Shown here in pieces: positions 1 to 6,000 of a stretch of 64,000 nucleotides of DNA. The first letter of the stretch is position 1. Every line of letters starts with the position of its first letter. The stretch is taken from NCBI RefSeq assembly GCF_017348835.2, contig NZ_CP071375.1; one strand, 5' to 3'. A program made the position numbers. The DNA is from Escherichia coli (GTDB lineage Bacteria; Pseudomonadota; Gammaproteobacteria; Enterobacterales; Enterobacteriaceae).

Positions 1-3000
1 AAGGTGTACGTCAGTTGCCTGCTGAGAGATGTCCTGCGATTGAACGAGCAACAAAAGGTGGTGTCCTGTGTGAAGAACTTCGTCCTGATGTTGATTGGAC
101 ATACTTACGACGCTCGTCATGTTATTCGCAGAATATGTCGATGAAGCAACCAAATGACGAAAACGATCATACCCGAAGCATCAAGAGGCAAATGATTCAT
201 GAAAATCAAACATGAGCACATCCGCATGGCGATGAATGCCTGGGCATATCCTGATGGTGAGAAAGTTCCGGCAGCTGGAATAACCCAGGCTTATTTTGAG
301 TTGGGTATGACGTTCCCAGAACTGTATGACGACAGCCATCCGGAAGCCCTGGCTCGCAATACCCAGAAAATTTTCCGCTGGGTAGAGAAAGACACCCCTG
401 ATGCAGTTGAAAAAATTCAGGCGTTGTTACCAGCGATCGAAAAGGCAATGCCACCTTTGCTGGTGGCCAGAATGCGCAGCCACAGTTCAGCTTATTTTCG
501 GGAGCTGGTGGAGACGCGGGAGCGACTGGTGAGAGACGCTGATGATTTTGTCGCAGTGGCAATCGCCGGTTTCAATCAGATGAACCGTGGTGGCCCGGCA
601 GGAAATGCTGTGGCAGTGCATTGAGTGATAATAGCCATATCGAATCGCTTCCGGCAACTCGTGAGTAAAAAGATTCGGTATCAGAAGAGGTGAGTATGGC
701 TAACGCCTGGCTCAGATTATGGCATGACATGCCAAATGACCCTAAGTGGCGAACAATTGCCAGGGTGTCAGGGCAGCCAATTGCAACAGTGATGGCAGTG
801 TATATCCACCTCCTGGTGAGCGCGTCACGAAATGTCACGCGAGGTCACATTGATGTCACGACAGAAGATTTGGCAAGTGCGCTCGACGTGACAGAAGAGG
901 TAATTGATTCAATTTTGCAGACGATGCAGGGGCGGGTACTTGATGGTGATTTAATCACTGGATGGGAAAAACGCCAGGTGCTTAAAGAGGACAACGGCAA
1001 TATTTCGCAAACCGCAAAATCTCCTGCAGAGCGCAAGAGGGCGCAGCGAGAGAGGGAAAGAAAGCGGGAACAAAATGGCGATTGTCACGGCGCGTCACGA
1101 AATGTCACGCACATGTCACGACGAGTCACGACAGATAAAGATACAGATAAAGATACAGATCAAGAAGATCAAAACACTATGGTCCATGGCGTAAAAAACG
1201 CCACGAACCAGGCAGGGGATGTTCAGACCGTCAACCCTGGTCAGCCAGCAGGCACGACACCGGAAGCCGATTCAGCGTATGCGCTGAAAGCCGATTCGGG
1301 CGCTGTGCAGCAGGTGATGACCGCAAGGCCGGAGCAATCACACCAACTGCAGCAGCCCGAAGCCGATTCCGCCATTCAGCGGGAAGCCGATCGGGTAGTC
1401 CCGGAAAACACCGGGCAGTCTGTGGGACGAGTGGATTATCCGGATGTGTTCGAACAGGTCTGGCGGGAATACCCGTTGCGTGCTGGGGCAAACCCGAAGA
1501 AATCCGCTTTCAGTGCCTGGAAGGCCAGATTACGCGAGGGGGTGCCACCAGAGGCCATACTGGATGGTGTGAGGCGTTACGCAAGATACCTGGCGGCTAC
1601 CGGGAAAACGGGAACGGAATTTGTTCAGCGAGCGACGACGTTTTTTGGGCCGGACCGGAATTTTGAAAACCCCTGGTTGCTCCCGGTAAGCGGCACGAAC
1701 AACCAGCGTTGTGTGAATCATATTTCTGAACCGGATACCGAAATTCCGCCGGGATTCAGGGGGGGATGTGGCATGAAAAACATTGCGGCAGCCGGGGTTC
1801 TTGAACGTATTCGCAGACTTGCACCACAGGCGTCGGTTCCACCGTACCGGACGGTGGAGGAGTGGCGGGAATGGCAACTTGTTGAAGGACGAAAACGCAG
1901 CGAGGAGATTAACCGCCAGAATCACCAGTTGCGGGTGGAAAAAATCCTGAATCGTTCGGGCATCCAGCCTCTGCACAGCAAATGCTCGTTTGCGAATTAT
2001 CAGGTGCAGAACGACGGGCAAAAATACGCGCTGAGCCAGGCCAAATCCATAGCTGACGAACTGATGACCGGGTGCACGAATTTTGTGTTCAGCGGTAAAA
2101 CCGGCACCGGGAAAAATCACCTTGCAGCGGCGATGGGTAACCGGCTGATGGCGAAGGGGCGCAGCGTGATTATTGTCACCGTGTCTGATGTCATGAGCGT
2201 GTTGCATGACAGCTACGACAACGGCAAATCCGGGGAAAAATTTTTACAGGAGCTTTGCAGTGTTGATTTGCTGGTCCTGGATGAAATAGGCGTTCAGCGG
2301 GAGACGAAAAACGAGCAGGTGGTATTACACCAGATAATTGATCGCCGGACAGCATCACTGTGCAGTGTCGGGATGTTAACAAACCTGAATCATGCCGCAA
2401 TGAGTACACTTCTTGGTGAGAGGATTATGGACCGCATGACCATGAACGGTGGTCGATGGGTGACGTTTAACTGGGATAGCTGGCGTCCAAATGTCAGCAA
2501 TATGAGGGTTGTGAAGTAATTTTGTCCGGAGGAAATTTTAATGGAAACCGTATCTGACGCACTGAAAGCACTGAAAAAAGCCTCTTCACATGTGGTGGCA
2601 GCTCGCCTTGGAATCAGTCGTGAAGAGGCTGTCAACGAGCTGTGGGAACTCAAAAGAAATGGCGTCGTTGATAAAACTGGTCACACCTGGTTTCTGGCTG
2701 GCGAAGGTGAATCCCGGGTAACCGAAGAGCGGCCAGTAAAATCTGAAGCACAGGATATGCTGACCGGGGAGGTCGAACAAAAAGTTACCGCAGACATGAT
2801 GATTGAGTTTATCGGTCAGGATGGGGCTAAAACGTGTGAGGAACTGGCGGGTAAGTTCGGTGTCAGTACTCGCAAGGTTGCTTCCACGCTGGCGGTGGTA
2901 ACCGCAACGGGGCGGCTGGCACGCGTTAATCAGAACGGTAAATTTCGTTACTGCATGCCGGGCGATAATTTACCAGCAGAGCCGAAAGCCGCGCTGGTAA

Positions 3001-6000
3001 CGGAAAGTGATGGTAAGGCCTTTCCTCAGCCAGCAGGTGCTGCGTTACCAGTCCGGGAAGCCGCAACACAGGAAGAAATTAAAACAGAAACTGTGGCGGA
3101 CATTGTGCAGCCGTTGCCATCGTTTACCGAAACGCAAGCAGATGAGCTGATTTTTCCGTCCCTTCGCAGGGCAAACCTGGCGCTGCGCAGGGCGAAAAGT
3201 GATGTTCAGAAGTGGGAGCGAGTCTGCGCCGCGCTGCGGGAGCTGAACAAGTGCCGGGATATTCTCCGGGATATTACCGCCACCAGAGAACAGCAGCGGT
3301 GAGTGGGTGGAAGACGTGGTGCCGGGCGGAAATCATGATACTCCGGCAGTGTGCGGGAACGAGGAAGGTAAAAAGCGTTGGCGCACTTATCGGACGAACT
3401 GAAGCGGCAGTGAGAACGAAGGCACGGGAGCTGGGCATCAGCATGATGTTACGTGGTGATTTTCACCCGTCGGCAAAATATTCTCAGCGTGATATTGAGC
3501 TGGCGCGGCAACTGCATCAGAGAGGCATGCAAAGAAGGGAAATTGCCAGAAAATTAGGCATGCCGCTGCGCATAGTGAATAACTACGTTTATTTCGACAG
3601 GAGGGTGTCTGCGTGAAAATCCTGTATCAGGATTACGGCCCGGTGGGGCAGGTGGTTATCAGCAGTACTGTAATGGAGTTTCGGAAGCATAACCGTGTGG
3701 TGGATGCTGTGCTGTTAACCTGTCCGGGGATATCGGCGAGTCGTGCAGGTGTGTTTATTATGAAGACGAAATTATATGGCAGTAAGGCGTGGATAAAGAA
3801 GGCGTATCGTGTAGCGTTGCAGGAGGTTAACAGTGAGTGAAATTAAAGAAATGCCGGTAGTTCGTGACGGATATGGCAACTGGACACATCCTGAATATGA
3901 AAAATTCTGTGATGGTCGGGAATATATTTCAACGGAAGAGTTTAACGCCTGGATGGAGGAAAATAATCTTCAATACGTCCTCTGCTTCAGAGATGAAGGA
4001 TGTGCTGACCTTGATGCGTGTGATGCTGATATTTCTGCATGGGAACCGGAACGACCAGAGGGCGATGGCTGGTTTATTGGTTCCATTCATGATACGGAAG
4101 ATGGCCCGGTTGTGTCTGGTTGCGAAATAAGGCTGAAGCATAAAGGCGATAAACCAACTAACAACTAAATACTGAAGATTTAAATCAGAAACGATTTTTA
4201 TTAAATCCTTAACCGGAGGGATTCCTGCACCCTCAGAACATCAGGAGGCCGCCCGAAAGGGCGGTAAGAAATGAAACATTATTTAGAAAAAAATTACCCA
4301 CGAAAGAGCAGAGCAACAGAGTTTCTGTTTTTCATTCTGTTTATAGTGTTGATGATACCGATATCCCCGCTATTACTGGTCTGGATAATTGGAAGGACAT
4401 TTGAACCAGTTATTGAGCTATATACCGATGTGACATGGGAATCATTCAGCGCACTGCACAATAAAATTAATCCGTATAAGGAAAACTGATATGAGCACTA
4501 TTACCAGAGAACGCGCGGAGATTAAATCATACATCACAGGCTTCCTGAGCGACTCGGCGCACGATAACAAGTCTTCAGACAGCCTGCTGGCTAATGTGTT
4601 TCGTATCGCGCTGGCATCACTGGAAGCAGAGCCGATAGCAATGGTAGTGCCTGATGAAATGGATTTGCTTACCTGCCATCTCGACGGTGTAACTAAAACA
4701 TATGCTGATGGCTGGAACGCCTGCCGCGTCGCCATGCTTCAGGCCGGAAACTTTCGGGAAAATAAGAATTCGTCAACCAACAATTTTCGGGAAATCTCGG
4801 AAACGTCAACCAGATCTCCGATAACTCTGGATGGCTGGATAAGCTGTACTGAGCGAATGCCTGAAAAGAGCCAGAACGTGCTTATTTCGATGAATATCGA
4901 TAGCGAGGCTGGGCCATTAATATATTCCGCACGCTATCTCGGAGGCACGTTCCGGCGCGGAGGTATAGCAGTTAGTCCGGGTAATGATCTTAGGCAAGCA
5001 ACCCACTGGATGTCGCTACCAGAACCGCCGCAGGAGGTGAATCAATGACCTGGCCTGAAGCATTCACAACGGTAGGAATTGCGATGGCGGTGGCGCTGGT
5101 GGTGTATTCGATTTGCCGCTGGGGATAAAAACGGTTTGCGGGAAAAGGATAGTTAAGTAGAATTGCTGCGGGTGCTTGAGGCTATCTGCCTCGGGCATGA
5201 ACACCAACGGCAGATAGAGAAAAGCCCCAGTTAACATTACGCGTCCTGCAAGACGCTTAACATTAATCTGAGGCTCAATCCATGCTGAACACATGTAGGT
5301 TAGCCTCTTACGTGCCGAAAGGCAAGGAGAAGCAGGCTATGAAGCAGCAAAAGGCGATGTTAATCGCCCTGATCGTCATCTGTTTAACCGTCATAGTGAC
5401 GGCACTGGTAACGAGGAAAGACCTCTGCGAGGTGCGAATCCGAACCGGTCAGACGGAGGTCGCTGTCTTCGTAGACTACGAATCTGAGAAGTAAGAGACC
5501 AGGCGGGGGAGTAATCTCCCGCCACCTCTGATGTGTCAGGCATCCTCAACGCACCCGCGCTTTACCATACTGAAAATGCTGTTTGAATGTTCATCTCTGA
5601 AAGAGGACTATGAATGAAAAAGGTATTGATTGCAGCACTTATTTCCGGTGTGTCTTTTGGCGCTTTTGCACAGCAGGGTGGTTTCCAGGGGCCAGAAGCA
5701 GAGCGTTCAACAGTAGCGCAGGCAAAAGAACTGAAGGATGATGCATGGGTTATCCTTGAAGGGAGCATCGTTAAAAAAGTGGGTGATGAACGTTATGAGT
5801 TTCGTGACAATAGCGGGACAATTGTCACGGATATTGATGACAGCGTATGGGCCGGGCAGAATGTTTCTCCGAAAGACAAAGTAAGAATTGAGGGTGAAAT
5901 TGATAAAGACCTGAGCAGTGTTGAAGTTGATGTAAAGGCACTGAAATTATTAAAGTAACCGCCCCTGCTTGTTAAGCCCGTCTTACTGACGGGTTTTCTG

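Follow-up and report, generated by a model that had tools for sequence, protein, structure and literature searches.

A five-gene block in a Rac-type Escherichia coli prophage as a probable chain of accessory cassettes, with a conserved Shine-Dalgarno–hairpin element between two of its genes

We analyzed a block of five small open reading frames (ORF1 to ORF5) at positions 2541–4489 of a 64,000-nucleotide (nt) stretch of Escherichia coli DNA (contig NZ_CP071375.1, assembly GCF_017348835.2; hereafter the window), together with the adjoining ORF6. The block probably marks the beginning of the nin-equivalent accessory region that belongs to the early-right operon of a Rac/CP-933P-type lambdoid prophage in Shiga toxin-producing E. 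coli (STEC), where it was assembled from exchangeable cassettes. Each of its genes is a member of a separately distributed, catalogued phage family. The initial annotation had placed the genes in a nin-type region, and by position it was right, with a DnaC-like helicase loader encoded upstream and RusA and Q downstream. It had also regarded them as one small operon whose products match no nameable family. The genes are indeed functionally uncharacterized, being known only as DUF or PHROG families, but families there are: ORF1 belongs to Pfam DUF1627 and ORF5 to DUF4014, while ORF2, ORF3 and ORF4 belong to PHROGs 323, 1001 and 1372. Confident matches to ordinary Nin or structural families were found for none of the five in PHROGs, Pfam or NCBIfam.

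The ORFs are real genes, as judged from their PHROG matches (ORF1, phrog_630, E = 3.5e-131 over positions 1–252 of 253; ORF2, phrog_323, E = 1.2e-21; ORF3, phrog_1001, E = 8.3e-38; ORF4, phrog_1372, E = 1.4e-49; ORF5, phrog_1832, E = 9.4e-45), from the number of contigs on which the exact proteins are recorded (114 to at least 1000), from a 39%-identical, same-length homolog of ORF3, and from the ratio of nonsynonymous to synonymous substitution rates (dN/dS) against diverged alleles, which is 0.36–0.47 for ORF1 and 0.09–0.20 for ORF4. Four of them, ORF1, ORF3, ORF4 and ORF5, are present with the sizes first assigned to them. For ORF2, which had been called as a protein of about 93 amino acids (aa), the start was wrong. 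The start given by the Prokaryotic Genome Annotation Pipeline (PGAP) and RefSeq, ATG 3335, lies 36 nt downstream of the corrected one. An alignment of 22 homologs from Escherichia, Salmonella, Pantoea, Enterobacter and Franconibacter reveals invariant residues W7, A10 and E11 encoded 5' of ATG 3335, and the homologs are 100–105 aa long with an MSxW N-terminus. ORF2 therefore starts at GTG 3299, in the 105-aa form that is annotated in 38 contigs.

Consequently, ORF1, ORF2, ORF3 and ORF4 form one translationally coupled string, with junctions of −4 nt (GTGA), −4 nt (GTGA) and −8 nt. The overlapping stop and start codons proposed for the whole block are thus found throughout ORF1–ORF4 and give way to a 102-nt gap between ORF4 and ORF5, which are uncoupled. 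In the same manner, the strong ribosome-binding sites noted before are present at ORF1, ORF3 and ORF4, while ORF5 has no Shine-Dalgarno (SD) sequence at normal distance from ATG 4271. ORF5 is itself coupled to ORF6, whose start follows the ORF5 stop after a 1-nt gap. The six co-directional genes therefore make up two coupled strings, ORF1-2-3-4 and ORF5-6, joined by a conserved intercistronic element. The G+C content falls across the block from 54% (ORF1) to 36% (ORF5).

Distribution and setting of the block genes

Gene neighborhoods were compared among the best 80 of 532 IMG/VR viral contigs that carry ORF4 relatives, with the other window proteins mapped onto them. ORF2-3-4-5-6 recur at fixed spacing in about 20 of the 80, with ORF1 alleles that are 63–80% identical to that of the window, which indicates a recombination boundary between ORF1 and ORF2. 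Many of the 80 contigs carry ORF4 without other block genes within 6 kb. In prophage L063, the order is DUF1627, a 74-aa ORF3 homolog (39% identity) directly 3' of it, two unrelated genes, ORF4, ORF5 and ORF6, and ORF2 is missing. In Rac-SA53, lygF, rac19, ead and rac21 stand in place of ORF2 and ORF3. In prophages of Salmonella and Pantoea, recE-like genes and xis/int flank the ORF2 homolog, which lies in the early-left operon. A Pantoea stewartii prophage (L094, 3672–4303) carries homologs of ORF4 (47%) and ORF2 (67%) that are adjacent and overlapping in reversed order, the ORF4 homolog lying immediately 5' of the ORF2 homolog, with no ORF3 homolog; this adjacency may reflect a loose association or common membership in an accessory pool. 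Only one pair, DUF4014 with DUF551 behind it, persists in distantly related phages. Such dispersed neighborhoods point to a chain of cassettes drawn from a common "ea/nin" pool and not to a dedicated multi-protein system. The idea of one small operon is therefore not borne out: the 80 viral contigs and the Salmonella and Pantoea prophages show separate cassettes, and one of the genes is inactivated in the window.

Chromosomal prophages of STEC strains from cattle and humans (serogroups O103, O111 and O26) match positions 2400–4600 with 100% identity, and 506 of 5426 complete E. coli genomes contain at least 80% of this segment. NZ_AP042682 shares 99.93% identity with the window over 12 kb and carries a prophage of the Rac-type lambdoid kind. 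One strand of that prophage encodes int (frameshifted), xis, a 3'-5' exonuclease, ydfD, dicB and racR, and the other an HTH (helix-turn-helix) gene, ydaT, a ydaU-like initiator, a ydaV/DnaC-like loader and then the five-ORF block. DUF551, hok/sok, a YgiW-family gene, DUF968, RusA, a Q-type antiterminator, tRNAs and lysis genes follow 3' of the block. Farther along are head and tail genes (portal frameshifted) and, at the right end beside potB, type III secretion system effector genes (NleG, EspW and a WxxxE member). In the same genome, a second prophage remnant adjoins icd.

In the reading that we favor, the block would be transcribed with the replication genes from a RacR-repressed ydaS-type promoter. 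The PydaST promoter of the K-12 Rac prophage is silent under RacR (PMC11879457), and we found no promoter-like or terminator-like sites above chance in 2300–5800; the block is therefore likely to be off in the lysogen and to come on early once the prophage is induced. Transcription of ydaW is not mentioned in the Rac-prophage literature that we searched. We suggest, tentatively, that all block genes provide dispensable accessory functions of lytic growth. Against the favored reading stands the state of the near-identical prophage (99.93%; L001 571–1690, L096 8041–10625), in which both integrase and portal are frameshifted. That prophage is probably defective, and some block genes may thereby have been freed from selection.

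In sum, the block is an ordinary lambdoid accessory region that was already known, every protein being an exact or near-exact copy of a RefSeq entry in a catalogued family. The first finding as stated therefore matters little, since these are typical conserved hypothetical genes, unchanged in hundreds of STEC genomes. What the analysis adds are corrections to annotation (the ORF2 start, an obsolete label for DUF4014, and a pseudogene allele of ORF4) and the element described below.

Table 1. Features of the block and its 3' neighbor in window coordinates (pI, isoelectric point)
Feature	Position	Strand	Description
ORF1	2541–3302	+	253 aa, full-length YdaW/DUF1627; SD GGAGG 8 nt 5'
ORF2	3299–3616	+	105 aa, pI 11.3, two HTH motifs, GTG start
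ORF3	3613–3840	+	75 aa, basic, pI 9.8, GTG start, SD AGGAGG
ORF4	3833–4168	+	111 aa, acidic, pI 4.3, GTG start, SD AGGAGGT; frameshifted allele of a 103-aa family
Intercistronic element	4195–4265	+	71 nt, conserved, SD and two hairpins
ORF5	4271–4489	+	72 aa, DUF4014 single-pass membrane protein
ORF6	4491–5048	+	185 aa, DUF551 (RefSeq name; phrog_60, E = 1.7e-38); outside the block as first annotated

The element between ORF4 and ORF5

The most distinctive feature of the block is an SD-hairpin linker that is common to unrelated cassettes. Its parts are UCCU (4206–4209), hairpin 1 (GAGGG/CCCTC, 4216–4234), the SD AGGAGG (4243–4248) and, right after the SD, hairpin 2 (GCCGCCC-GAAA-GGGCGGU, 4248–4265), followed by 5 nt to ATG 4271. 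The SD is thus 22 nt from the start codon in linear distance, and effectively about 5 nt if hairpin 2 folds. The spacer folds better than all 200 of its shuffles (z = −3.85) and is about 95% conserved where the ORF5 alleles behind it are only 72–76% identical as proteins. A covariance model of the element finds a single copy in the window, at 102.7 bits. No Rfam family matches the element, and no paper in the searchable literature contains the hairpin sequence. The model also matches iterons 3–4 of the lambda origin (L085, 470–533); at 13.1 bits (E = 0.47), this match is not significant and is probably a coincidence, stemming from GGGGGATTGCTATCCCTCAAAACA, which resembles hairpin 1 and its 3' flank.

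The element is present in at least 120 IMG/VR stretches. In about 200 instances, the upstream gene is ORF4-like in 104 and another gene in 94. An ATG mostly follows within 6–11 nt, and the downstream genes are of at least ten unrelated kinds, including DUF4014, a 60-aa very acidic protein, a 43-aa hydrophobic protein, and proteins of 173 aa and about 300 aa. So many unrelated downstream genes suggest a portable linker and not a one-gene device. Among 32 variants, 97% of hairpin cells are paired, the stem changes are all one-sided C-to-U with G-U pairing kept, and the hairpin 2 loop is GAAA or GAUA. Two points count against a functional fold: the 32 variants contain no compensatory double changes, and part of the sample of elements was gathered with a pattern that fixes the 3' arm. 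The hairpin structure is therefore predicted and not proven.

If hairpin 2 forms, it would bring the SD to within about 5 nt of the AUG in the manner of a split ribosome-binding site, and the linker would supply a translation start to whichever cassette follows. Because the element is common to different cassettes, it would also offer homology for recombinational exchange and mark a cassette boundary. A joint proposal, in which the element is a portable, possibly regulated start as well as a homology patch for shuffling, and the cassettes linked to it (YdaW-type, ORF4 family) are anti-defense factors, is speculative, and we would not expect all of its parts to hold. Should the element be functional, it bears on both the translation and the reshuffling of lambdoid accessory regions.

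Two observations concern the start of the ORF5 gene just 3' of the element. A run of A's at 4286–4293 (GAAAAAAAT) occupies codons 6–8 of the DUF4014 gene. An 82-aa ORF5 variant (P0063, 845 contigs) starts at an upstream ATG, and its reading frame runs across the hairpin into the frame of ORF5; this fits one A fewer in the run, which is therefore a possible slippage-prone site. In Rac-SA53 (4461–5226), the DUF4014 gene carries an IS1 insertion precisely at its start (window 4274–4281); the 8-bp target duplication of the IS1 is AAACATTT, the sequence right after the ORF5 ATG.

The protein families and neighboring features

Residues 91–245 of ORF1 match Pfam PF07789 (DUF1627) over model positions 1–155 of 155 (E = 9.9e-96). 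The protein is 55% identical to K-12 Rac YdaW (b1361) across residues 1–154, with the same gene order after ydaU-ydaV, and its family comprises 146 representatives at 50% identity. An AlphaFold2 model based on 45 diverse homologs (predicted local distance difference test score, 79) has confident winged helices at residues 1–52 and 84–138 and a long helix at the C-terminus (208–252), with disordered linkers in between; of these helical parts, phrog_1888 covers only winged helix 1 and the C-terminal helix. Foldseek searches with this model return tandem winged-helix proteins (ScpB, the SelB C-terminus, ESCRT-II and DDRGK1; E ~1e-3), as well as MarR/ArsR and Z-alpha domains (E ~1e-3).

PHROGs 142, 1687 and 633 are matched both by winged helix 2 of ORF1 and by Ren of lambda, and K-12 ydaW is among the prophage genes that block the retron-Sen2 toxin RcaT on overexpression (bioRxiv 10.1101/2020.06.22.160242). 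Taken together, the ren position, the similarity to the Ren PHROG and the RcaT screen make an anti-abortive-infection role the best available guess for YdaW-type proteins, albeit a tentative one; a role as phage regulators, ranked second, is a weaker candidate. ORF1 itself could possibly act as an oligomeric tandem winged-helix protein that has nucleic acid or a host protein as its ligand and counters abortive-infection toxins, a proposal that we likewise hold only loosely.

A number of observations speak against this assignment. The whole protein matches phrog_142 (Ren) at E = 2.5e-6 and the isolated second winged helix at 9.6e-4, but a generic MarR-like PHROG scores equally or higher, and hhalign of ORF1 with lambda Ren gives E = 0.0028 at 11% probability. 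The RcaT evidence comes from an overexpression screen of the 55%-identical, shortened K-12 protein. DUF1627 genes also occur without a preceding helicase loader; in fact, a diverged one follows a RecE-like gene, in one early gene string with a P2 A-type initiator.

In the literature, we found DUF1627 only as a neighborhood marker, and a 2026 preprint on Pas small RNAs (sRNAs) lists DUF1627, RusA and TerB as conserved neighbors of prophage sRNAs such as those noted below for the window. A DUF1627-HTH fusion was considered as a "Rosetta stone" and discarded: the clustered DUF1627 proteins of 238–241 aa carry no HTH part, and the sole real fusion (P0221) is a decayed remnant in a degenerate prophage. 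With its ren position, two winged helices, long C-terminal helix and one retron-toxin-blocker result, YdaW/DUF1627 nevertheless offers a testable lead.

ORF2 has, as the second of its two HTH motifs, one of the resolvase or sigma-region-4 type. Residues 60–87 match Pfam HTH_7 weakly (E = 5.3e-4), and the best specific relative in the PDB is 2lvs, a tandem-HTH protein (E = 2e-4). The simplest reading of these motifs, which we offer with reserve, is that ORF2 may be a sequence-specific DNA-binding regulator. Matches to PINS/LGN tetratricopeptide repeat proteins and to a designed repeat protein were rejected, as they sum weak repeats among which no single stretch is significant.

ORF3 has no match in Pfam, NCBIfam, PADLOC or the PDB, and its family is confined to E. 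coli (9 clusters at 90% identity). ORF4 belongs to a family of 103-aa proteins that end in ...DGPVCVWLRNKxEA. The window reads GGTTGTG at 4110–4112 where the ~97%-identical module L068 has GGTTTGTG, so that one T is lost. The original stop lies at 4141–4143. As a result, the nearly invariant residues C94, W96, L97 and R98 are replaced by 18 unrelated residues, and the conserved C-terminal strand is lost. PGAP labels the gene "frameshifted", and the same allele is found on 667 contigs; it is therefore real and widespread.

The predicted fold of ORF4 has no match among solved structures and the family has no Pfam entry, making this a widespread group of proteins with no relative of solved structure. 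Its invariant His, Asp, Glu and Cys residues hint at a metal or active site more than at a DNA mimic. In the AlphaFold Database (AFDB), the ORF4 family also occurs in fusions with proteins that bear the names Lar-family, "exoribonuclease Rv2179c-like" and DHHA1. A kinship of ORF4 with DUF551 through a W..P...GWF motif was dismissed (hhalign E = 0.5), and the longer family members (135–173 aa) have short, mutually unrelated extensions and are probably miscalls. ORF3 and ORF4 might be small host-interaction factors, although we would put no great weight on this.

ORF5 matches Pfam PF13198 (DUF4014) over positions 1–72 of 72 (E = 1.3e-24). It has one hydrophobic span at residues ~17–41 (Kyte-Doolittle maximum 2.92 at 19–37), a net charge of +4 at the N-terminus and −2 at the C-terminus, and homologs in epsilon15 gp46 and 933W L0067. 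The one functional label carried by ORF5 relatives, "O-polysaccharide acetyltransferase inhibitor", is out of date: in the epsilon15 record, gp28 is now the transacetylase repressor and gp21 and gp22 have the remaining conversion functions, whereas the ORF5 homolog is gp46. Small "gnarl" proteins modify the O-antigen (PMC12373910); they were considered for ORF5 and serve as a precedent only, as we found no link. Our literature search returned no paper on DUF4014. ORF5 could conceivably act at the inner membrane with the DUF551 protein, again a provisional assignment.

No ORF has a significant match to known defense systems in PADLOC-DB 2.0. The best scores there (E = 1.5e-3 and 1.9e-3) are to CARF/Csa3 winged-helix regions, and ORF3–ORF6 have none. 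The suggestion in the initial annotation that such genes encode host-takeover or superinfection-exclusion functions is thus only hinted at, by the weak Ren-like match of ORF1, the screen result for K-12 ydaW and the membrane location of ORF5.

Several features of the surrounding DNA are recorded here in their own right. Upstream of the block, one ORF of 609 aa (690–2519) spans both the ydaU-like initiator and the ydaV/DnaC-like loader. The initiator stop TGA (1764–1766), which L001 retains, has become GGA through a T-to-G change at 1764 inside a G run. A 61-mer with G at 1764 is matched exactly in 4 of the 541 E. coli genomes that have the region, and the fused protein is absent from the protein collection; the fusion may be genuine but uncommon, or else the four assemblies may contain the same homopolymer error. 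The initiator gene also contains GTCACG repeats at 824–862 and 1084–1132, spaced by about 10 nt with 3 copies of a 39-nt unit. By analogy with the lambda origin inside gene O, these are candidate origin iterons.

Downstream, a hok/sok locus lies just 3' of the DUF551 gene (sok, 5170–5344, Rfam, 113.5 bits; hok/mok-type ORF, 5282–5494; RefSeq label, Hok/Gef family protein). Beyond the Q gene and two tRNA genes are a match to the STnc100 sRNA (9774–9966, + strand, 145.8 bits) and partial matches to the AgvB and AsxR anti-sRNAs (9967–10000, − strand), cut only by the edge of the scanned stretch.

Alternative readings and comparison with known systems

The tight packing of the block, with its three overlapping junctions, could be taken to mean that the genes are one dedicated system (superinfection exclusion, host takeover, toxin-antitoxin or a defense operon) with cooperating parts. 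The roughly 20 IMG/VR loci with ORF2–ORF6 at fixed spacing and the adjacent ORF4 and ORF2 homologs in Pantoea fit this proposal. Those fixed-spacing loci, however, are close relatives (92–99% identity), while distant contexts separate every pair except DUF4014-DUF551. In addition, ORF3 is found in E. coli only, whereas the ranges of ORF2 and ORF4 span Enterobacterales; 667 contigs carry the ORF4 frameshift next to intact neighbors; and PADLOC has no significant match. We therefore consider a single system very unlikely. We give as little credence to the view that a defective prophage carries the block as non-functional cargo in decay. The ORF4 frameshift, the frameshifted integrase and portal of the near-identical prophage and the rare stop-codon loss that fuses two replication genes in the window are what one would expect of decay, but hundreds of genomes carry intact, identical copies of ORF1, ORF2, ORF3, ORF5 and ORF6, dN/dS stays under 1 for the genes that allowed its measurement (ORF1 and ORF4), and the families are kept in the functional phages Rac-SA53, Stx (Shiga toxin) phages and epsilon15.

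A more serious competitor, which we regard as possible though on balance doubtful, is that ORF1 and ORF2 regulate the phage's own replication or expression (at the origin, or in late-gene timing) and are not host or defense factors. Both are predicted to bind DNA, ORF1 lies directly 3' of the replication genes here and in many relatives, some ORF1 relatives carry the database names "DNA replication protein" or "phage regulatory protein", and the upstream initiator gene holds iteron-like GTCACG repeats. Yet repeated candidate operators were not found within or beside the block, the top tandem winged-helix matches include the protein- or RNA-binding ScpB, ESCRT-II and SelB, DUF1627 is also found after RecE and beside the P2 A-type initiator, and the ORF2 homologs of Salmonella and Pantoea are far from replication genes. 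The element, for its part, could be a transcriptional signal (nut/boxB-like, put-like antitermination, or a pause or processing site): its 7-bp G+C stem with a GNRA loop (GAAA/GAUA) recalls the fold of the lambda boxB loop, and two stem-loops conserved in sequence without covariation would suit a site bound by protein or RNA polymerase. This role is less likely, as there is no boxA-like CGCTCTT upstream (4169–4247) and no T-run after the stem, and the element is constantly tied to an SD and an ATG: it lies mid-operon, always abuts AGGAGG, and in most cases has the next ATG 6–11 nt away. Rfam, too, has no match. We therefore judge a transcriptional signal improbable and retain the portable translation start, within a chain of exchangeable cassettes, as the preferred reading.

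The closest counterpart of the block as a whole is the P-ren-ninB...ninH-Q region of lambda. Both lie in the early-right operon between a helicase-loader gene and RusA/Q, and both consist of small co-directional genes with overlapping stops and starts; the block differs in that none of its five proteins falls in a Nin family (PHROGs, Pfam and NCBIfam). Lambda Ren, which Toothman and Herskowitz (1980) reportedly found to protect from Rex exclusion, occupies the place of ORF1. Ren is, however, a single-domain protein of 96 aa, as opposed to the 253 aa, two winged helices and C-terminal helix of ORF1. K-12 YdaW is nearer, having the same place after ydaU-ydaV and both winged helices, but the Rac deletion ends it at 186 aa, before the C-terminal helix, whereas the window ORF1 is full length. 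The sole functional datum on YdaW, the blocking of RcaT, is thus that of the K-12 fragment.

For ORF5, the counterparts are epsilon15 gp46, 933W L0067 and g341c gp23, all 72-aa proteins with 47–78% identity. In epsilon15, gp46-gp47 repeat the immediate succession of DUF4014 and DUF551 seen in ORF5-ORF6; g341c has a truncated EaA gene instead. The DUF4014 pair lies early-left near int in Stx and P22-like phages, in contrast to its location 3' of the replication genes here and in epsilon15.

The element itself resembles the split ribosome-binding sites known from phage T4 (genes 38 and 25), which are said to have been described by Gold in 1988 and by Nivinskas et al. in 1999. Like them, it combines a distant SD with a predicted stable hairpin in the gap, which would leave an effective spacing of about 5 nt. 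Unlike them, its SD-hairpin unit is common to at least ten unrelated genes across many prophages.

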